A stretch of DNA of 64,000 nucleotides from a virus (lineage: Duplodnaviria; Caudoviricetes), in IMG/VR virus record IMGVR_UViG_2595698832_000001, positions 64,001-128,000 of that record. The stretch is one strand, 5' to 3'. The position numbers and the translations under genes are program-made. Below are positions 3,401 to 34,375 of this stretch, piece by piece; position 1 is the first letter of the stretch, and each line of letters opens with the position of its first letter. The notes beneath the pieces are model-generated. The model made no database searches. It saw only the letters and a program-made list of their open reading frames with translations, and was not told the DNA's origin.

Positions 3401-5752
3401 ATACATTTATTAGAAAATAATATATGTTCTTTAAAGCCTGCAGATATGGAATTACAACTTGTAAGACTTAAAGAATTTAAACAAACAATAAATAATATAT
3501 TGCAATCTATGTTTGATGAGAGCCCTGTAACTCTAAAAAATGGAGATTACATAGATGTTTCATTTAGTGGTAGTGCAAGCTGTGGAACAGGATATTGTGG
3601 GTATGTTAATATAAAAGATACTATAAGAGATATTACATATAAAGCTTATAAAGTATCTTCAAATGCTTTTAATACAACTAGTGAAACTAAAGTTATTGCA
3701 GTTCTAACTTCTGATAACAGTAAAACAAATGTAACTTATTCTGATAGTGTATCAACATTAGAATCTTATGAAGTAGCAGAAAATGAGATATTATTAGAAA
3801 TATCATTTTCAACTGCTAAGCAGTATTCTGCTAAATACGGGTATGGAGCTATGTTAGAGTATTGGGGTTCTGTATCTGATTTATGTTATGATTATTATAT
3901 GGGTTCAAACCTAGATATGAACTGTCCATTTAAAATAACAATACTAAAACTAGGAAGTTCTGTTAAAGCAGATACTATACAAATAGGTGCTCCTACTTTT
4001 GCAGGATCATTAGTTATGCACCTAAGAAAAAATACAAACGATGTTATTAATTTCCTTGTATCTACAGGTGTGAATGTAACAGGAAGAGATGGAGCTGAAA
4101 GCGGATCAGTATATAATTTAGTAGAAAAATCATTGAAACCATTAAAAGTTCTAACATCTGAAGCACATCAATCTATAAATGGTATAACTACTTTTAATAA
4201 TAAAGTGTATATGAATATAGACAATGAAAAAATTACAGACAGCAAACAACTAATACATAAAGAATACCTAGATAAAAATATTGCAGACAATGTAGCATAT
4301 AATATTAGTAATACTCCATTAGTACCTTACAATGATGTTAGCTCTTTAAACACAAAAAATATCGGTGTAAGAATATCTGCGACAACTAATAACTCTAGTT
4401 ATTCATCTGGTGATACAGTAGTAGTTAGTAATTTCAAGATAAAACTTAAAGGAGATGGTGAATACCTTAAACCTTATGGGGTTGAAGTTGTTGATAGAGA
4501 AAATAATAAAATAGGTTTAAATTTAATAGGAGATGATACAGTATATAATGATAATGATGCTTTATTATCTACAAGGCCTTCTGATTTCAACTCATCTAAT
4601 GTAGATCTTTCTAGTGGTAGTAATGCTGTAGCTACAGTAAAAACAAATGGTGCATACGATTATAGTGGAGTATATGAGATTTGTAATCCTTTCAGAGAGT
4701 ATAATAAAAAATATTGCGTATTTTTAAGTTCTGATGGATTAAAAAATCCTTACTATCAAGTTGATATAAGTAGCTCCAAACAAGTTGATAATATATCTTT
4801 TCAATTATTTGGAACTAGTGCTACAAATCCTTTTTTATATTCTAAAGACTGTAAAATTGAGTTATTTGTAGAAAATACTGTTGTAAAAACCTTCAATGTT
4901 AAAGGAAGCTCTGAAAATAATAGTCCTGTAAATATTAATATAGATTATAAAGATGGTATGTTCTTAATATCTGTTCTTGATTCTATAAATTATATAAATA
5001 ATAGAATCAATAAAAATGCAGAGTTACTTACAGGGTTAGGGAAACCCAATTTTTCACTAAACCCTAATAAAATAGGCTCTTTATACTCTGATACAACAAA
5101 TAAAGCTGTATATATGTGTATAGACAATACTTTTGGTGCTAATAAATGGGTGAATATAGTAACAGGTGATGAAATTAAACCAAACCTTAGAAAAATAGAA
5201 ATCACTTGTAATGTAAACTTAAGAAGTGGCCAATACGGTGGTTGCATGAGCGGTGTTAAAATAGGATTTGATAACGGGTATGCTTCTACAAAACAAATAG
5301 TTAAAGGATTAAATAATGGTCAGATATTATGGTCATTAGACGGTTTAGGTAATCTAGCTAGTTATTCTGAAGTAGGTTCTTTATCTCCTAGTGGTAATGA
5401 TATCAAAGGTGATGTTACTACTACTGGAATATATAACGACCCTTCATATCATTGTGTTACTAATATATTCAAAGAGTATCTTGGAAATGCTGACCAGTGT
5501 TCATTATGGTCTGACGCTAGCACTAAACAATTAAAAATAACATTAATATCTGAAAAAGTCCCTAATAAAATTACTTATGTAGGTAACGGATATTATGGTC
5601 AGACTTCTGTATCTGATGTAAAAGCTATATGGTATTATGTAAATGATGACGGTATGAAAGTAGAAGAGTCTGTAGATAATGAACTTGAAGTTAGTGTTAA
5701 TAGTTCAGAAACAAACGATAGTTCTTATATATATGCGTTCAATATAAATTAG
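487..5752 (+). CDS. Large tail fibre / receptor-binding-like protein (~1750 aa; ORFs 487-1947 and 1901-5752 joined across a +1 A at ~1940)
   Basis: KADxxxVYNKSEID repeats continue across the break. Also repeated QxIxGxKTF fibre motifs, GDLxxLKT..AINE repeats, a coiled-coil N-terminus and a beta-rich C-terminus. Confidence 0.7.
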
Positions 5753-24954: not shown

Positions 24955-25297
24955 ATGAGGGGGTTAGTTTATAAATCACCACTTAAAGTTGATTTAGATT
25001 TAGCAGAATCTTATAAAGGTAATATATTTTTATATAATGAACCAATAAAAAATGATCCAGAATATAGCATACAAGATTCTATTGATTTAGTATCTAAACC
25101 AGATCCTGTAACTTTTAGTGAATCAATATCTTTAGATGATACTAACCACTTCAATATTGATTTCAATTTTTAACGAAACAGCGATATTAAGAGAATCTGT
25201 CTTTGATATAACTTCTGAGACTATTGATTCTGATTTTAGTAGAGATCCAGAGCCTGTAGATCCTGGATTTAACTCTGATTCAAAACCAAGTGTATAA
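24955..25297 (+). CDS. Acidic hypothetical protein (frameshift ~25170)
   Basis: 72-aa ORF continues in an adjacent open frame to TAA at 25297. Confidence 0.45.
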
Positions 25298-26101: not shown

Positions 26102-26308
26102 ATGTATGACGATATTGTAAAGAATGTAATTCAAAATAAAGGGCTGGCTCAAGCAAGTAATGATTTCAGAGCTATTCTAATTGATAAGTTCGACTATATG
26201 CCAGAAATTAGATCAAGACTAGCTTCTATTGAAAAATATAGGGATATGAGAGCTTCACAATTTTCTGCAAATAATGCATATAACCCAGATCGAGATTCGA
26301 TTTCTTAA
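26102..26308 (+). CDS. Small hypothetical protein (possible prohead core component)
   Basis: 68-aa ORF with an AGGAG RBS after gp21. Confidence 0.5.
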   Translation: MYDDIVKNVIQNKGLAQASNDFRAILIDKFDYMPEIRSRLASIEKYRDMRASQFSANNAYNPDRDSIS

Positions 26309-26461
26309 ACATTTAAAATCCAAATTTTACTCGAGAGCTAACATTTTAAAATACTAAAATATTAGCTCTTCAGCTTCAAATTTCAAACCATAATCAGTTA
26401 ATTTTAATATATAATATAATATAATATAATATAATAAAACAAAATCATAAAAAGATTTATA

Positions 26462-27673
26462 ATGTTAAGCAAAGAAGAAATAAAATATTTTCAAACACAT
26501 AAAAATGAAATAACAGACGAACTCTTAGAAACAATTAGAGCTCAAGGAAAACTAGGAAAAGCACAAGCCTTAGAAATCTTAGATTTACCTAAAGACTCTG
26601 ACAACTATTACTTAGATGCGTATAATACGAGAATTAGTTATAATGGGTCTCGTGGTCTTAAAAAAGCTTACACAAAATTAAACTTAAGTCCGATACATAT
26701 CAGCGAGCTTGAAAAATGTGCGAATGATCCACTTTATTTCTTAAGAAATTATGTTCGAATGACTACACCAAAAGGTTTTGATTTCGTAGATTCTAGGCCA
26801 TACCAGGATGAATTTATACAATTGCTGAGCGATGATTCTATCGAAAACGTGATATCAATGCAGCCTCGTCAATGCATTGAAGCAAATACTAAAATAAATG
26901 TAAATGGTAATGAAACTACTATTATTGAATTATTCGTTAACCAAGAATCTAATAAAAGATTATATTTTAATAGTTCTAAGTTTATTGAAAGTTATGAATG
27001 TAAAGACAAATATGTAGAAACGCCTATAGGTAAAGTCAAAATTCTCGAAGTCCATAAAACTATTAAATACAATATTTTTGAGATAGAAACCGAAAATGGA
27101 TTCAAGTTACAAGCATCTGAATTACACGTATTAATAGACGAAAATGATAACGAATTATATGTTAGAGATTGTTTAAATAAGGTAATTAAAACAAAATCAG
27201 GACCTTCTAAAATAATATCTAAAACATTTATAAAATATGATCATTGTTATGATTTAACTTTAGAGCATTATCACCTTTATTACACCAATGGTGTTTTAAG
27301 TCATAATTCATCTAAATCAACTACAACAAGTGTAAAACTTGCACATTTATACTGTTTTAAGAAAGATCTTACCATAGGTATAGTTGCTTATAGTGGTAAT
27401 TCTGCCCGAGAGTTCTTAGATAAAACAAAGAAAATATTAATAGGTTTACCAATATGGATGCAGCCAGGAACAGTTACTTGGAATAAAGGTTCAATAGAAT
27501 GTGAAAATAATATACGTATTTTAACGGACGTGCCGAGCAACAGCTCATTTAGGGGATTCAGTTGCTGTCTCGAAAATACTCGAGTGCAGGTAAGAAATAA
27601 ATATACTAATAAAATAGAAACGCTTACCATAAAGGAATTGTATGCTAGGTTACAAGAACTCAAAAAATCTTAA
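26462..27673 (+). CDS. Terminase large subunit (gp17), N-terminal gene: extein + intein 1 + extein + split-intein N-half
   Basis: KCANDPLYF, RPYQ, QPRQ|SSKST Walker A, WNKGSIE, FRGFS. Confidence 0.93.
   Translation: MLSKEEIKYFQTHKNEITDELLETIRAQGKLGKAQALEILDLPKDSDNYYLDAYNTRISYNGSRGLKKAYTKLNLSPIHISELEKCANDPLYFLRNYVRMTTPKGFDFVDSRPYQDEFIQLLSDDSIENVISMQPRQCIEANTKINVNGNETTIIELFVNQESNKRLYFNSSKFIESYECKDKYVETPIGKVKILEVHKTIKYNIFEIETENGFKLQASELHVLIDENDNELYVRDCLNKVIKTKSGPSKIISKTFIKYDHCYDLTLEHYHLYYTNGVLSHNSSKSTTTSVKLAHLYCFKKDLTIGIVAYSGNSAREFLDKTKKILIGLPIWMQPGTVTWNKGSIECENNIRILTDVPSNSSFRGFSCCLENTRVQVRNKYTNKIETLTIKELYARLQELKKS
26873..27307 (+). mobile_element. Mini-intein 1 (145 aa) in TerL Walker A
   Basis: CIEANT...SELH...YDL...NGVLSHN|S. 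Confidence 0.9.
27563..27670 (+). mobile_element. Split intein 2, N-half (36 aa)
   Basis: CCLENTRVQV...TIKELY...stop, directly after RGFS. Confidence 0.85.
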
Positions 27674-28907
27674 ATTAACACATAATGTTGAATTTCCTAA
27701 GGACTTTTTAGAACCACACCCAATACCAAAATGTTCATTAAATGATGAAGAAAAACAAATAATAAAAAACATACTCGAAGAAGTTAATTTTTTTAATGCT
27801 AAATATAATAGTGAGTTAACAAGATTTAGATTCTGGGAGAGAACAAATCCAGAATTAGGTGCTAAATTTTTAAAAGATTTTAATTTTTTTAAATCCTATT
27901 ATCATAAAATTAGACTTATAGATTATATAAAGGTTTTTATATTAAATACAGAGACACAAAAAAGTCTTACCAGAAAATTTAAAGACATAGATGATTTTGT
28001 AAAAAATGCCAGATATTGTGATAGTACAATAGTAAACAATAATAAGTTGATAGAATCAAATGAAATTAAAAAATATATTAATTTTAAACCTATTAAAGCT
28101 AGTGAATTATTATTTTGTTATTATGCTAATATTAAAGATAGACCACTTTGTAAAATGTGCACCAAAGAAGTAGAGTTTCAAAATATGCAATATGGTTATA
28201 GATTGTTTTGTTCACCAGAATGTCAAATAACATACCATAATTCTAAAAAACCTATAAAGCATTCTAATTTATCACACGATGAAATTATAAAAATTATTAA
28301 GAGTGTCCCGCCTGATATCAGAAATACTGCAAATGAAAAAATAGCAAATATTTTTGGTAATGTACTTGAATATACAAAAGATTCGGATATCAGAGATGAT
28401 GAAAGATTATATCTATATGTTAATAAATTAAGTACTAACCACGTATTTTGTGAATGTGGAAATAAAAAATCATTTAAAAGCCAAATACAAGGTTATGCTA
28501 AAACTTGTGGGTCAATATATTGCATCTTACTAAGTAAAGGCCATAAACCCCGTAGGCCTAAAGGAACGTATTCTAATACTGTTTCTGGAAATGGTTACGG
28601 TATGCCCGGAAATGTTTATGTATTATATTCAGAATCATTAGGTGCTTACAAAGTAGGAATAACCAAAAACTTAGAACAGCGTTTAAGAGATTTAAGACGC
28701 TTTGTTCCTGACCTGGATTTAAAAATATGTGTATTCGTAAGCGACTCGGGCCGTGTCGAGAAATTTATACATAAAAAATATAAAGATAATAATGTTAAAT
28801 TTAGGGAGGGATTTCCAGGATCTGGCGAATTCTTTGATTTAAATAAAGCTGAAATGGAAGACATAACAAGAATATTAATAGAAGCGAACTTCAAGGAAAA
28901 TGTGTGA
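27642..28907 (+). mobile_element. Free-standing homing endonuclease (Zn-ribbon repeats + GIY-YIG/T5orf172-type domain)
   Basis: CKMC..FCSPEC and CECG..TCGSIYC; VYVL..YKVGIT..RL..E..IH..GEFF; overlaps both terminase halves. Confidence 0.8.
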
Positions 28908-29215
28908 GTGAAATCCAAGATATAAATCCATATGAAATATTAACACCACAAGGATTTAAACCTTTTGTTGATATCATTAAATCAATTCAAACAACTGGCA
29001 TAACAATAACTTTAGAGGATTCAAGAGAGATATCAGTTACATTAGATCACAAATTTAAACACTTAAATGATTATAAAGAAGCCAAATATTTTAAAGTAGG
29101 TGATAAATTACAGTGTTCAAAAATTATTAAAATTGAAAATATTGAAGGTGAATTTTATGAACCTTTAGAAGTTCAAGATCACGAGTATATAGCCAACGAC
29201 TTTATAAATCATAAT
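28904..29215 (+). mobile_element. Split intein 2, C-half (104 aa)
   Basis: ILTPQGF...VTLDH (block B)...YIANDFINHN|C. Confidence 0.85.
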
Positions 29216-30748
29216 TGTAATATAATCGTTGTTGATGAATGTTTAGAATACAGCACTACCATAAACATATATAGCAAAACGTTAAATGAATCTTTTGATA
29301 TTAAGATCGGAGACTTCTACAATCAAAATCCTAACATAAACAATTTCAAAGTTCTAACTTCTAATGGTTATAAATCATTCAAAGGTATTAAAAAAACTAT
29401 TAGACGCGATAACTTGCAAATATTTTTCGAAGATTCTAATATTATAGTAACACCTGAACATAAATTTTATGATAATGGAACTTTCATAAGAGCAAAGGAT
29501 ATAAAAATTAACGATATCATAAATGGTAAAAAAGTTAAATCAATTAAAGAAAATGTTGCTTGTAGCAATGAATTCTTTGATTTATTAGATGTTGAAGATG
29601 GTCATCATTTTACTGCTAATAATATAGAAGTTTCAAATTGTGCATATTTAGATCCAGCCTCTTGGATAGATTTCACTGATGGTGTTTTACCATCACAAGC
29701 TGGCTTAGCTTTCAAAAAATTAGTTATTTTATCTACACCTAAAGGTAAGAATCATTTTTACGATATTTGGCAGGGTGCTGGAGATACTTTAGATACTTCT
29801 GTTAATGGATTTGTAAAACATAAAGTAGATTGGAGATTAGTCCCAAGGTTTAAATCTGATGGTACTAAGTATGAACCAGAAGAATTTAAACAACAACAAA
29901 TTAAATCCAGTGGTCTAGTCATTTGGAATTCTGCATACGAATGCAAATTTGAAGGTTCTGCGATGACATTGATACCTAGTGAAATATTAGATACTTATAA
30001 ACCACAAGAACCAATAGAAGTTGATAATATTAAGGATTCTAAAATACTAATATACGAAGAACCAATACCCGGACATAAATACGTTATGGGTGTTGACACT
30101 GCTAAAGAAGGTGCTGATTTTACAGGGGTTCAAATATTTGATACTACAGATTTAAATTTCAGACAAGTAGCATCAGCAAAACTTAAAATAGATTATATGT
30201 TATTACCAGAGTTACTCAATGAGTATGGTTTAAGGTTCAATCAAGCTTTAATAATTGTAGAAAATAATGAAGGCTCTGGTCAAGTGGTTGCTGATATTCT
30301 CAAAAGAGATTATGAATATGAGAACTTATATTATGACGTCAATAAACAAAAACAAAGATTAAAATATCCTGGGTTCAGAACTACAAAATTATCAAGGGAT
30401 GTTATTTTACAAACTGTATCAACGTTAGCACAAGCTAATAAATTATTATTAGTGGACAAAGAAACTATTAAGGAGTTTGGAGTATTTACATTAAATGATA
30501 ATGGTAAGTACCAAGCAGCTGTAGGATATCACGATGATTTAGTAATGTCTTGTTGTTTATGTTTTGGTATTTTTACAAATGTTAAGAACTTTGAAGATAT
30601 GAAAGAAATTGTAGATTCTTTAAAAAGTTCCGAAGGAAAAAGTTTTGAGTATCTAACATTTGGAGCTTTTGCAGATGGTTTAGGTACAGAGCCAGATTCT
30701 AACACTGATAATAAGGATTTGAATCACAGTAATTTGGAATATTATTAA
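28904..30748 (+). CDS. Terminase large subunit, C-terminal gene: split-intein C-half + 8-aa extein + intein 3 + ATPase C-part/nuclease
   Basis: CNIIVVDE|CAY Walker B, LSTPKG.NHFY, GVDTA, IVENN, HDDLVM. Confidence 0.93.
   Translation: MSEIQDINPYEILTPQGFKPFVDIIKSIQTTGITITLEDSREISVTLDHKFKHLNDYKEAKYFKVGDKLQCSKIIKIENIEGEFYEPLEVQDHEYIANDFINHNCNIIVVDECLEYSTTINIYSKTLNESFDIKIGDFYNQNPNINNFKVLTSNGYKSFKGIKKTIRRDNLQIFFEDSNIIVTPEHKFYDNGTFIRAKDIKINDIINGKKVKSIKENVACSNEFFDLLDVEDGHHFTANNIEVSNCAYLDPASWIDFTDGVLPSQAGLAFKKLVILSTPKGKNHFYDIWQGAGDTLDTSVNGFVKHKVDWRLVPRFKSDGTKYEPEEFKQQQIKSSGLVIWNSAYECKFEGSAMTLIPSEILDTYKPQEPIEVDNIKDSKILIYEEPIPGHKYVMGVDTAKEGADFTGVQIFDTTDLNFRQVASAKLKIDYMLLPELLNEYGLRFNQALIIVENNEGSGQVVADILKRDYEYENLYYDVNKQKQRLKYPGFRTTKLSRDVILQTVSTLAQANKLLLVDKETIKEFGVFTLNDNGKYQAAVGYHDDLVMSCCLCFGIFTNVKNFEDMKEIVDSLKSSEGKSFEYLTFGAFADGLGTEPDSNTDNKDLNHSNLEYY
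29240..29638 (+). mobile_element. Mini-intein 3 (133 aa) directly after Walker B
   Basis: CLEYST...VTPEH...FDL...NNIEVSN|C; penultimate residue is Ser, not His. Confidence 0.88.
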
Positions 30749-30763
30749 AATTTTGGATTCTAA

Positions 30764-31493
30764 ATGAAAGAATATATTAAATACAACGATAGAAAATTTA
30801 CTTTAACAGCTTACAAAGTTAAAACTGAAAGAGATTTATTATTAACTGCAAGCTCAGATGATACTGTATACAGTAAAGATCTAAATGATTTAAACTTAGA
30901 CATTTACTTAAGAATCTTAGAACCTTATATAGATTCTAATATAAACATTTATGATTTATATCCGGAAGAAAAATTATTTTTACTTTATAGATTAAGAGCA
31001 ACTTCAGTTTCTGACCAATTATCTTTAAATACTAGGTGTGATTGTGGTTGTACTTTTAAATCTAACATAGATTTAGGAAAAATTGGAGATCTCCATAGTA
31101 TTGATACAAATACATACCCAGATTTGAAAGACGTTTATAGCCCAAATTTAACCGACATATACAGTGATTCTTACTTAGAATCTAATATTATGGATTATGA
31201 TTCTGAATTAGATATGTATTTAGAAGCTAATACTACTAAATTTAACTTTATTAAAGTTGTTAAATGTTATAATTGTAAGAAAGATCTTGAAATCGATTTA
31301 ACAAACCCAGAAATATATAAAAATATATTTTACAGAGAATCCTATAGGTGAGTTCTACAAAAGTTTGACAAGATTATCATTTCTAGGTAAGTTTACCATA
31401 GATGGTATTTTAAATGATTTATATCCATTTGAAAGAGAAATCTTTATAAGTTTAATAAATGATGAAGTAGAAGAACAAAATAAAGACACTTAA
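30764..31493 (+). CDS. Baseplate hub assembly protein, gp26-like with gp51-like tail (frameshift ~31335)
   Basis: YKVKTERDLL, LRATSV, CDCG, CYNC; downstream frame LYPFEREIFISLI. Confidence 0.65.
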
Positions 31494-32328: not shown

Positions 32329-33844
32329 ATGATCAAAAAATTAACCGATAGAGAACATATTCTAAAAAGACCTAGTATGTATATAGGTGCTATAGATTCT
32401 ACAAATACAGAAGATTTTATTATAGAATCAGGTAAAATTAAATACACTACTTTGAATTATGTACCCGGTTTAATTAAAATAATCAATGAGATTATCGATA
32501 ATTCAGTAGATGCTGCAATTAGATCTAAATTTAAATCTGGCTTAAATATCAGTGTTAAAATATCTAATGATACTGTTAGCATTGAAGATGATGGAACTGG
32601 TATACCAGTAATAAAATCAGGTGACCACTATATGCCAGAACTAGCTTGGAATCACGCTAAAGCAGGTTCTAACTTCGATGATGATGCTAATCGTGTAACA
32701 ATAGGTACCAACGGAGTTGGAAGTTATTGTACAAATGTTTGGAGTATTAATTTTAAAGGTATTACAGACGATGGTAAAAATAGATATATTTTTAAATCTA
32801 AAAACAATGCTGAAACTTATAGTGAAAATATAGAAGCTTCTAAAAAATCAGGAACTTTAGTAGAATTTAAACCAGATTTAGAAAGATTTAATCTTAAAGA
32901 AATCGATGAAACTCATAAGAATATAATCTATCAAAGATTATTAAACTTAGCTATTTGTTACCCAGAAATTAATTTTAAATTTAATTCTAAAAAAATAGAT
33001 TTTAAATCTTTTAAGAATTATTTAAATATGTTTAGTCCAGATTTTGAGTTATACGAAAATCAAAATATTAAAATTGGTATTATTCCAAATGAATTGGATG
33101 ACTTTAAACAATTTAGTTTTGTCAATGGTTTAAAAATACCAGACGGTGGTGTCCATATAGATACTATTATGAGCAATGTAGTTCAAGGTATAAGAGATAA
33201 ATTAGTTAAAAAATATAAAAGTATTAAACCTGGCGATATTAAAAATAAATTAATGATTGTTTGTTTTATTAATGAAATGCCAAATCTTAAATTTAATTCG
33301 CAGTCTAAAGAAAAAATTACAAACTCAGTAAAAGAATTTAATGATTTTTCTAATATAGATTATAATTTCATCAATAAAATTCTTAAAAATAAATCTATTA
33401 TAGATCCTATTATAGACATATATAAAGTTAAAGAAGCTTTAAATGCAGATAAAGCTCTTAAGAGTGTAGAAAAATCTAAGAAGTTAAAATCTAGAAAAAT
33501 ATTTTAGAGCAACAAAAAGTCAAAAATATCTTTGTATTTGTGAAGGTTTTTCCGCTTATGGTGGTATATCACAAGTTCTTGGAAATGAACATACGAGCTT
33601 CTATGTTCTTAAAGGTAAACCATTAAATTCCTGGGATGTCACTAATCAAAAATTTGCAGCCAATCGCGAATTATCTGAATTATATCAAATACTTTCTGAG
33701 AACGCAGAATTTGAAGATCTACAAGATGGTAAATTCTATGAAGTCACAATAGATGGTAAAACATATATTATGAATGCAAATGATACAATTGAAATTAATA
33801 ATATTAAATATAATTTCGAAGATCTACAAAAAGGATTGCAATGA
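32329..33844 (+). CDS. DNA topoisomerase II ATPase subunit, T4 gp39-like (frameshift ~33493)
   Basis: EHILKRPSMYIG, EIIDNSVD, DDGTGIP, GTNGVG, SQSKE; downstream frame CEGFSA...LKGKPLN. Confidence 0.92.
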
Positions 33845-34375
33845 GACCAGTTAGAATAGCAATTTCAGGAGCTCAATGTTCTGGTAAAACTACATTAATT
33901 AATTTAATGAAGAAACATAGTTATTTTAAGAATTTTGATTTCATAGAATCATTTTCTAATAAAATAGCTAAAACAAACAAGAAACACTCAGAAAATACAA
34001 ACTTAGCAACGCAGTTACAAATGTTATATTATAGTGTTAATGACTTTAAAAAATATAAATGCACCCACTGTACACGATAGATGTATTTTGGATGTTATAG
34101 TATATACAGGTATTAACAAAGACATCGGTTTAAAATTATTTACAGATTCTTTAATAAAATATTATAAACAGTTCGATTTTATTTTTGTTTTAGATTCTGA
34201 AAATATACCATTAGAATCAAATGGTGTTAGATCAATAGACCCTGAATTTAGATCTAAAATAAACAATATTTTTAAGAAAGTAGACTTAGAAAACGTCGTT
34301 CACTTAGATTCTAAATTAGACCCAGATTCTAGGATATTAAAAATAATCGAAGCTATAAAATCTAAAACTAATTAA
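33841..34375 (+). CDS. P-loop nucleotide kinase (AAA_28/NadR-like; frameshift ~34050)
   Basis: ISGAQCSGKTT, DRCILD, NGVRS; next to dUTPase. Confidence 0.7.

Follow-up and report, generated by a model that had tools for sequence, protein, structure and literature searches.

Three inteins in the large terminase gene of a Firehammervirus-like Campylobacter phage, one of them apparently split around a free-standing endonuclease gene

The window analyzed here is a stretch of 64,000 bases (bases 64001-128000) of the 182,833-bp virus record IMGVR_UViG_2595698832_000001, which is rated complete and derives from a Firehammervirus-like Campylobacter phage, and the subject of this work is the large terminase (TerL) gene found in it. 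We consider it very likely that this sole TerL gene of the phage carries three mobile inteins, and that the second of them has been broken by a gene insertion and is trans-spliced to yield a TerL protein of 599 amino acids (aa). The basis for this reading is the anatomy of the gene, the exact intein borders, homology to a family of inteins for which trans-splicing is known from experiment, the independent presence and absence of the elements in related phages, and purifying selection, while the splicing itself, its order, and the activity and target of the nuclease are inferred.

Anatomy of the terminase gene and its natural alleles

TerL is encoded on the + strand by two open reading frames (ORFs) sharing one frame, ORF1 and ORF3, which are separated by ORF2 in a different frame (Table 1). 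ORF1 and ORF3 were aligned to the structures of T4 gp17 by HMMER with E-values of 1e-22 and 4e-28, and the matches end at the predicted intein borders. The original prediction for this stretch, made from the letters of the DNA and a list of ORFs, had described a first gene ending with a 36-aa intein N-half (IntN) after RGFS, a 421-aa endonuclease ORF in another frame, and a second gene consisting of a 104-aa intein C-half (IntC), the eight extein residues CNIIVVDE and a further intein. All of these elements were found again at the positions given in Table 1, and the endonuclease ORF matches the Pfam families T5orf172 and MUG113 above their cutoffs. Between the two TerL ORFs, across 27671-28903, their common frame is crowded with stop codons. 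ORF2 begins within the IntN coding region, sharing 32 nt with ORF1, and has an AAGGA sequence 5 nt before its ATG, while its stop codon shares 4 nt (GTGA) with the GTG start of ORF3, which in turn has AAGGA 6 nt upstream. A search of the complete 182,833-bp genome for a second terminase found none, leaving this gene as the sole copy.

Removal of the three inteins in silico results in a 599-aa protein that aligns without a single gap to the intein-less 599-aa TerL of Campylobacter phage CC_R7 (...RGYS-CNIIVVDE-CAYLDP...), in agreement with the proposal that splicing restores RGFS-CNIIVVDE-CAY; the spacing of gp17, which had been cited in support of it, fits the HMMER alignments as well. Likewise, the placement of intein 1 in Walker A, between PRQ and SSKST, turned out to be exact when compared with the CC_R7 protein and with the contig joints described below. 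The Walker A motif of the spliced product (26852-26872 joined to 27308-27322) reads QPRQ-SSKST, with Ser replacing the usual Gly before the Lys. This Ser is common to all Firehammervirus alleles seen, including the intein-less CC_R7, and the metagenome loci L089 and L090 read GRQSGKS.

Table 1 Features of the terminase locus, with positions as in the window.
Feature	Position	Strand	Remarks
ORF1	26462-27673	+	403 aa; TerL residues 1-137, intein 1, 85 extein aa ending FRGFS, IntN, TAA
ORF2	27642-28907	+	421 aa; frame differs from ORF1 and ORF3; free-standing endonuclease gene
ORF3	28904-30748	+	614 aa; same frame as ORF1; IntC, CNIIVVDE, intein 3, Cys + 369 TerL residues
TerL N-extein	26462-26872	+	residues 1-137, ending ISMQPRQ (first part of Walker A); HMMER match to T4 gp17 structures
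Intein 1	26873-27307	+	predicted contiguous mini-intein, 145 aa (aa 138-282); Cys1...SHN, Ser+1; inside Walker A, between PRQ and SSKST
Extein segment 2	27308-27562	+	85 aa, SSKST...FRGFS; last ~45 nt hypervariable
IntN of split intein 2	27563-27670, TAA to 27673	+	36 aa, CCLENTRVQV...ELKKS; aligns with contiguous homologues
IntC of split intein 2	28904-29215	+	104 aa; GTG start; block B TLDH; ...INHN, Cys+1
Extein segment 3	29216-29239	+	CNIIVVDE, Walker B strand; 8 residues between two inteins
Intein 3	29240-29638	+	predicted contiguous mini-intein, 133 aa; Cys1, block B TPEH, ...EVSN, Cys+1; directly after Walker B DE
TerL C-extein	29639-30748	+	369 aa, remaining ATPase and nuclease domain; HMMER match to T4 gp17 3ezk, E 3.7e-28

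The closest relatives of this TerL are found in the genus Firehammervirus. When ORF3 was compared by tblastn with 50,697 phage records, 2484 records matched, the best being vB_CcoM-IBB_35 (in the following IBB_35) at 92.8% identity, and the matches of ORF2 in the phage records were confined to two IBB_35 records, at 89.1% identity. IBB_35 resembles the window in having intein 1, the split intein 2 with its ORF2, the 8-aa spacer and the N-part of intein 3, all with identical junctions. It differs in its intein 3, which is interrupted ~28 residues from its start by a nuclease of the HNH type (MobE-like) in frame with the N-part. In the IBB_35 record the terminase has been left as a misc_feature.

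To this we add Logan contigs from four runs of four studies (X1, X5, X6, and X10), which were compared with the window over 26400-30800. In the X1 contig position 26872 is joined to 27317, so that intein 1 is missing, and IntN, ORF2, IntC, and intein 3 are present at ~96% identity with zero indels between 27317 and 29147 and no net frame change. The X5 and X6 contigs show the joints 26872 to 27317 and 27528 to 29215 with only diverged extein codons between them; they lack IntN, ORF2, and IntC together, 33 letters before the junction being unaligned, and they retain intein 3 with 2-4 differences over 29215-30800. One X10 contig carries intein 1, another has IntN, ORF2, and IntC followed by a joint from 29241 to 29642 that leaves out intein 3, and in a third X10 contig intein 3 stands directly behind extein codons.

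An allele with none of the three elements is present in CC_R7, and intein 1 alone in CP220, CPt10, and WX1, where the CP220 record annotates a Hint domain at this place. Inteins 2 and 3 occur together in the X1 contig, inteins 1 and 2 without intein 3 in the X10 contigs, and intein 3 by itself in X5 and X6. The proteins P0003 and P0005 have IntC at their start, followed by CNIIVVDE-CAYLDP, and thus contain intein 2 without intein 3. Of the alleles that lack intein 2, those of the CC_R7 type have Cys at position +1 and those of the CP220 type Thr. ORF2 is present in the window, IBB_35, X1, and X10, and absent from CC_R7, CP220, WX1, F379, X5, and X6. Since the elements are present or absent separately in the contigs, we take the three to be independent of each other and the segment 27563-29215 (IntN, ORF2, and IntC) to be a single unit. 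Furthermore, natural precursors match every cis-splicing intermediate, with N-fragments of the L090 type and C-fragments of the P0003 type, and therefore no special cooperation between the inteins would be required.

Based on this anatomy we propose that three separate mobile inteins invaded the only large-terminase gene of the phage, and that inteins 1 and 3 would each excise in cis from their own polypeptide. A free-standing homing endonuclease gene of the T5orf172/GIY-YIG type would have broken intein 2 in the loop after its first ~36 residues, with the result that TerL would be translated as two polypeptides. The 36-aa IntN tail may then dock into the nearly complete 104-aa IntC, so that the HINT fold becomes whole. 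Ligation of ...FRGFS with CNIIVVDE... by trans-splicing would yield a 599-aa ATPase-nuclease, of about 69 kDa as estimated from its length, with both Walker A and Walker B intact. The original prediction that two cis-splicing events and one trans-splicing event would be required seems sound to us. The unit 27563-29215 would be mobile as one, the nuclease presumably cutting unit-less terminase alleles near the insertion site and the following repair copying IntN, ORF2, and IntC together. TerL is very probably functional in this arrangement, which is supported by the equal layout in the cultured phage IBB_35, a phage that must package its DNA.

With respect to expression of the gene, promoter-like sites were not more numerous than in shuffled sequences (41 vs 33.4 +/- 6.9) and terminator-like sites numbered 0. 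The T4 late-promoter motif is TATAAATA; this word is absent inside the gene, and the nearest copy is at 25293. Among the public sequencing runs listed as containing the stretch, none was an RNA run. The ORFs are presumably co-transcribed.

Identity of the inteins and alternative readings of the break

All three inteins contain Cys1, a block B of the form (T/S)xxH, a terminal Asn, and a Cys or Ser at position +1, the catalytic residues being C...SELH...SHN/S for intein 1, C...TLDH...NHN/C for intein 2, and C...TPEH...VSN/C for intein 3. IntC was matched by HMMER to the C-terminal half of the Cat intein, CatC (6dsl_B), with an E-value of 2.4e-6, and also to gp41-1, and intein 3 was matched to CatC with an E-value of 8.2e-10. 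Inteins 2 and 3 are 32% identical to each other (E 2e-14), while intein 1 is more distant. In the alignment the N-terminus of CatC falls on the N-terminus of IntC, and since the two starts coincide, the break point in the two inteins is identical. When contiguous homologues at the same TerL site (e.g. P0009, P0015, and P0023) are used for comparison, IntN corresponds to their first ~30 residues, and the first of its two Cys residues is Cys1.

An AlphaFold model of residues 1-260 of ORF3 (IntC, the 8-aa extein segment, and intein 3), built from a 27-row alignment, had a mean predicted local distance difference test (pLDDT) score of 86.9 and consisted of two beta-rich domains joined by a low-confidence linker at residues 108-110. 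Foldseek searches with the model against the PDB resulted in 58 matches at E<=0.001, and those listed were inteins or other HINT-domain proteins, among them Cat (6dsl_B; probability 1.00, root-mean-square deviation (rmsd) 2.1 Å over 102 columns, 32% identity), gp41-1, VidaL, and NrdJ-1. All three inteins appear to have the HINT fold, as judged from the model for IntC and intein 3, and from the Hint annotation of the CP220 homologue for intein 1. The ratio of non-synonymous to synonymous differences (pN/pS) relative to IBB_35 was 0.05 for IntN, 0.18 for IntC, 0.23 for ORF2, 0.46 for intein 1, and 0 for the first extein, values that come from few sites and small counts, and they indicate that both halves of intein 2 as well as the nuclease gene are under purifying selection.

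The small counts behind these ratios are the first of several points that weigh against the interpretation given above. The penultimate residue of intein 3 is Ser and not His, which could slow splicing, a feature shared by its relatives. The scores with the Pfam model Intein_splicing, 19.2 and 21.7 bits, are under the curated cutoff of 35.8, and IntN searched alone against the PDB sequences gave chance matches only, the best with an E-value of 0.022. For ORF2 the AlphaFold model, made from 5 close sequences, is unusable (mean pLDDT 33.3), which leaves the Pfam matches as the ground for its predicted nuclease activity. Finally, neighbouring genes in the record look frameshifted, and the accuracy of the record at the base level is imperfect.

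The last point raises the question of an artefact, in which sequencing or assembly errors would have broken up one ordinary intein with an in-frame endonuclease domain. Apparent indels elsewhere in the record agree with such an origin, but it would need two compensating frameshifts together with the loss of many stop codons, and IBB_35 as well as the X1 and X10 contigs, the latter from two other studies, retain the stop, the frames, and the overlaps. The fusion of IntN, endonuclease, and IntC into a single frame, which the original prediction had considered as a possible outcome of resequencing, is not what these independent sequences contain, as all three keep the stop, the frame offset, and the overlaps. 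We regard an artefact as extremely unlikely.

If the gene has been sequenced correctly, the terminase could still be decaying under its load of selfish elements and be non-functional in this genome, and it is true that three nearby genes (the gp51-like gene, the gp39 topoisomerase, and the P-loop NTPase) appear frameshifted. Against decay, extein residues 1-137 are identical to those of IBB_35 at 137 of 137 positions, pN/pS is well below 1 in every part, all motifs are intact, and the gene is the only terminase of the genome with a layout shared by a cultured phage, so that we assign a very low probability to this explanation.

A different possibility is that ORF2 resides in a group I intron or a translational bypass element and that a contiguous intein is restored at the level of the mRNA or the ribosome. 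An intron was suggested for IBB_35 by Carvalho 2012 (PMC3322345; what is said here and below of sources with PMC numbers refers to the accessible portions of their texts), and the shared frame of ORF1 and ORF3 means that removal of 27671-28906 would be in-frame. However, an Rfam scan of 26300-30900 at E<=1 found no intron family, its sole match being a chance snoRNA at E 0.99, and there is no non-coding space for an intron, as ORF2 fills the gap and overlaps both neighbours. In addition ORF3 has its own ribosome-binding site and GTG start, in the metagenome locus L091 an equal break is present although no gene intervenes and the halves are ~100 nt apart, and a start with IntC is seen in most of the best database representatives (see below). 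It is therefore very improbable that an intron or a bypass explains the break.

It remains to consider a TerL that functions as two polypeptides without a peptide bond between them, their association being non-covalent and brought about by either the intein halves or the exteins. Split genes that work without splicing do exist, an example being the NrdA of phage Aeh1, split by a homing endonuclease gene (cited in Dassa 2009, PMC2677866). In the present case, however, the splicing residues Cys1, TLDH, HN, and Cys+1 are all kept and under purifying selection, and the break is located inside the ATPase core, 8 residues before Walker B, where a leftover HINT domain of 140 aa, adjacent to a further intein site, would probably block both the active site and the pentamer, an argument that has also been made for TerL inteins in PMC5050341. 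We find this explanation unlikely, if less so than the three above, and trans-splicing of intein 2 is the reading that we use in the following.

The endonuclease gene and the broken alleles of the terminase inteins

The Pfam matches of ORF2 mentioned above are to T5orf172 (E 1.1e-10, 42.3 bits, cutoff 20) and MUG113 (E 2.1e-9, 38.3 bits, cutoff 22.3), and both are C-terminal, in residues 325-410; the GIY-YIG model gave an E-value of 0.025 and 15.3 bits, which is below its cutoff of 22.6. ORF2 belongs to phrog_8130, its neighbours in the ESM Atlas are T5orf172 clusters, and it is present in a single copy in the genome. A search against the PDB sequences returned nothing at E<=10. We take ORF2 to be a putative nuclease, and a candidate for its target is suggested by the DNA next to the insertion.

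The last ~45 nt of the extein before intein 2 (~27518-27562) are hypervariable, exceeding the remaining extein DNA in each of the comparisons, with many of the changes being synonymous. When differences were counted per 30 nt against CC_R7, CP220, and IBB_35, the bin ending at the junction had 5-10 differences and the bin before it 9-13, compared with 0-7 in other bins; in the comparison with WX1 divergent bins were also found near its 3' end. Between IBB_35 and the window, both of which contain the unit, the two bins at the junction had 12 and 7 differences and the others 0-2. The patch may hint at the endonuclease target or at a co-conversion tract, and the pattern fits either evolution of the target site or co-conversion.

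To see how common such arrangements are, IntC with the following 8 aa was searched by HMMER against 1.84 billion representatives, resulting in 313 matches at E<=0.001, the best 150 of which were classified by regular expression (a few rows, e.g. P0123, may be misfiled). The commonest location, site C in the motif CxFxGS..TLI, accounts for 56 representatives, 40 of which begin with IntC. Site A, 4-7 residues before the DE and the site of intein 2 in the window, was found without a second intein in 26 representatives (13 beginning with IntC) and in tandem, with a second intein right after the DE, in 16 (10 with IntC). Site B after the DE, which is the site of intein 3, is occupied in 30 representatives (21 with IntC), and the rest is made up of representatives with other sites (15, 7 of them beginning with IntC) and of representatives that were not assigned to a site (7, one of them with IntC). 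In total 92 of the best 150 representatives begin with an IntC-like domain, and a Met start is found in 90 of the 91 classifiable representatives with an N-terminal IntC. It is evident that the Cat-like intein family occupies at least three TerL sites among the best 150 of the 313 matches. When 72 viral-contig loci related to P0007 through the extein were scanned ORF by ORF with HMMER profiles (--max), IntC-like domains were detected in CP220 and CPt10 only.

Six metagenome loci from one scan (L089-L094) illustrate how the inteins can be broken. L089, from a phage that is ~50% identical, has all three inteins in this layout, the halves being separated by an unrelated ORF of 332 aa (phrog_22706), and L090 has the split intein alone. 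In L091 (469-1940) the same split intein occupies the same site, but its IntN and IntC are only ~100 nt apart and enclose no gene, an arrangement resembling the stage called "endonuclease lost" in the gene-breaking model. Intein 3 is broken by an in-frame HNH nuclease in L092 and L093, and in L094 its two parts are separated by a 115-aa ORF. For every one of the three inteins there is an allele in which the break falls into one and the same loop, after a short helix and before the strand xxLTPxGF.

The F379 locus (L003, 2866-6212) has intein 1 split into a 30-aa IntN, an overlapping 381-aa ORF, and a 111-aa IntC starting at TTG, and thus adds another atypically split terminase intein to that of the window, located at another site. 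The 381-aa ORF is annotated as an "intron-associated endonuclease", and its match to T5orf172 is sub-threshold (E 0.0043). In IBB_35 (L001, 4001-6805) the 28-aa N-part of intein 3 is fused in frame to the HNH nuclease annotated MobE, which matches phrog_655 at 1e-20, and within the C-part of intein 3 the reading frame of the record shifts near 5586. Among the intervening nuclease ORFs of the window (ORF2), F379, and IBB_35, no significant pairwise BLAST similarity was found. We tentatively suggest, as a possibility with less than even chances, that only in the loop after the first ~30 residues can a free-standing nuclease gene insert itself without destroying the function of the intein, so that "atypical" splits recur, and that the inteins spaced by 8 aa would make the maturation of TerL an ordered three-step process that could gate packaging.

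Known systems, neighbouring genes, and significance

Atypically split TerL inteins were reportedly described by Thiel in 2014, by Bachmann and Mootz in 2015, and by Stevens in 2018. The characterised AceL, GOS, and Cat TerL inteins are located at what we take to be the C-motif site (CxFxGS..TLI), and unlike these, intein 2 of the window probably has a different insertion site, with a second intein 8 residues further on and a third in Walker A. The likeness to AceL, GOS, and Cat lies in the host protein, a T4-like large terminase, and in the dimensions of the halves, as an IntN of 36 aa and an IntC of ~104 aa compare with an AceL IntN of 25 aa, a GOS IntN of 37 aa in an intein with Ser1/Cys+1, and Cat halves of 30 and 104 aa; all three trans-splice in vitro (PMC11766414). 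As mentioned above, the similarity to Cat, whose structure PDB 6DSL is entitled "consensus engineered intein with atypical split site", extends to the break point, the IntC homology, and the fold, but only about one-third of the residues are identical, and intein 2 has Cys1/Cys+1, unlike the Ser1/Cys+1 of GOS.

Fractured genes were described by Dassa, London, Stoddard, Schueler-Furman and Pietrokovski in 2009, and the 27 loci of that study include a gp17-like terminase, "fractured at an unusual point", whose C-part is long (PMC2677866). The present gene follows the same plan of N-extein with IntN, endonuclease gene, and IntC with C-extein on one strand, and some of the loci in that report have GIY-YIG nucleases. 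In those loci, however, a non-coding spacer of 27-51 nt with a possible hairpin precedes the nuclease gene, in contrast to the overlaps of 32 nt and 4 nt found here; we consider the spacer a descriptive trait and not a mechanistic requirement. Further differences from the portion of that report accessible to us are the T5orf172/MUG113 nuclease, the three inteins in one gene, and the origin of the gene in a complete genome near cultured phages as opposed to metagenomic reads. The original prediction had stated that fractured phage genes and atypically split TerL inteins exist, which holds (PMC2677866, PMC11766414).

The TerL inteins of mycobacteriophages are concentrated in the ATPase domain, where they occur at the P-loop, Walker B, and the C-motif, and splicing has been argued to be necessary before assembly of the pentamer (Kelley 2016, PMC5050341). 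Unlike the inteins described here, those are contiguous, mostly contain LAGLIDADG, and occur one per gene, and no split or tandem case was found in the accessible part of that paper. Use has already been made of the split PolB intein of Campylobacter phage CP21, according to the accessible part of a 2025 Angewandte paper, and out-of-frame nucleases in actinophage inteins were discussed in a 2025 preprint. The full-text literature searched, which does not cover most subscription papers, contained neither a split terminase intein in Campylobacter phages nor two terminase inteins 8 residues apart. The kind of gene is already known, as a fractured gene with an atypically split TerL intein of the type common in metagenomes. 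Details that appear to be unreported are the tandem spacing, the overlap of a T5orf172 nuclease gene with the two intein halves, the presence of three inteins in one gene, and probably the insertion site.

Downstream of the terminase three genes appear frameshifted. The ORF of the gp39-like topoisomerase (32329-33507) comes to an end after 392 aa, at an A-run (~33495-33507), and is resumed in a different frame at 33488-33844, with relatives having a single 503-aa protein, so that the window contains either a real frameshift or a homopolymer error. The P-loop NTPase (33841-34375), a single gene of ~177 aa in relatives, is found here as overlapping frames 33841-34080 and 34034-34375. The gp51-like baseplate gene (30764-31493) encodes 246 aa in IBB_35 and 195 aa here, its C-terminal part being a separate 42-aa ORF (31365-31493), and is the third apparent frameshift <=4 kb downstream of the terminase. 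Outside the window the same genome has other interrupted genes, at about 175.5-178.9 kb, 158.6-161.9 kb, and 33.7-37 kb (L009-L013). In its PolB-like gene a typically split Ser1 intein encloses an ORF of 333 aa, in its NrdA-like gene an intein N-part precedes an ORF of 273 aa, and intein-profile matches are found near its PhoH-like gene.

For annotation, the two terminase ORFs should be joined conceptually, and neither "MobE endonuclease" nor "hypothetical protein" is a suitable name for the second. The present analysis also corrects the interpretation as "intein plus intron" that was published for the terminase of IBB_35. As an atypically split intein with Cys1/Cys+1 that is only about one-third identical to Cat, intein 2 is possibly an orthogonal labelling tool. 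Most presence and absence combinations of the three elements, together with contiguous and broken alleles of inteins 1 and 3, provide a natural series for the gene-breaking model of Dassa 2009. Atypically split TerL inteins, which have so far been characterised from metagenomic reads, are now placed in a complete genome near the cultured phage IBB_35, and this closeness would make the trans-splicing of the terminase, the homing of its inteins, and the packaging that depends on it testable by phage genetics.

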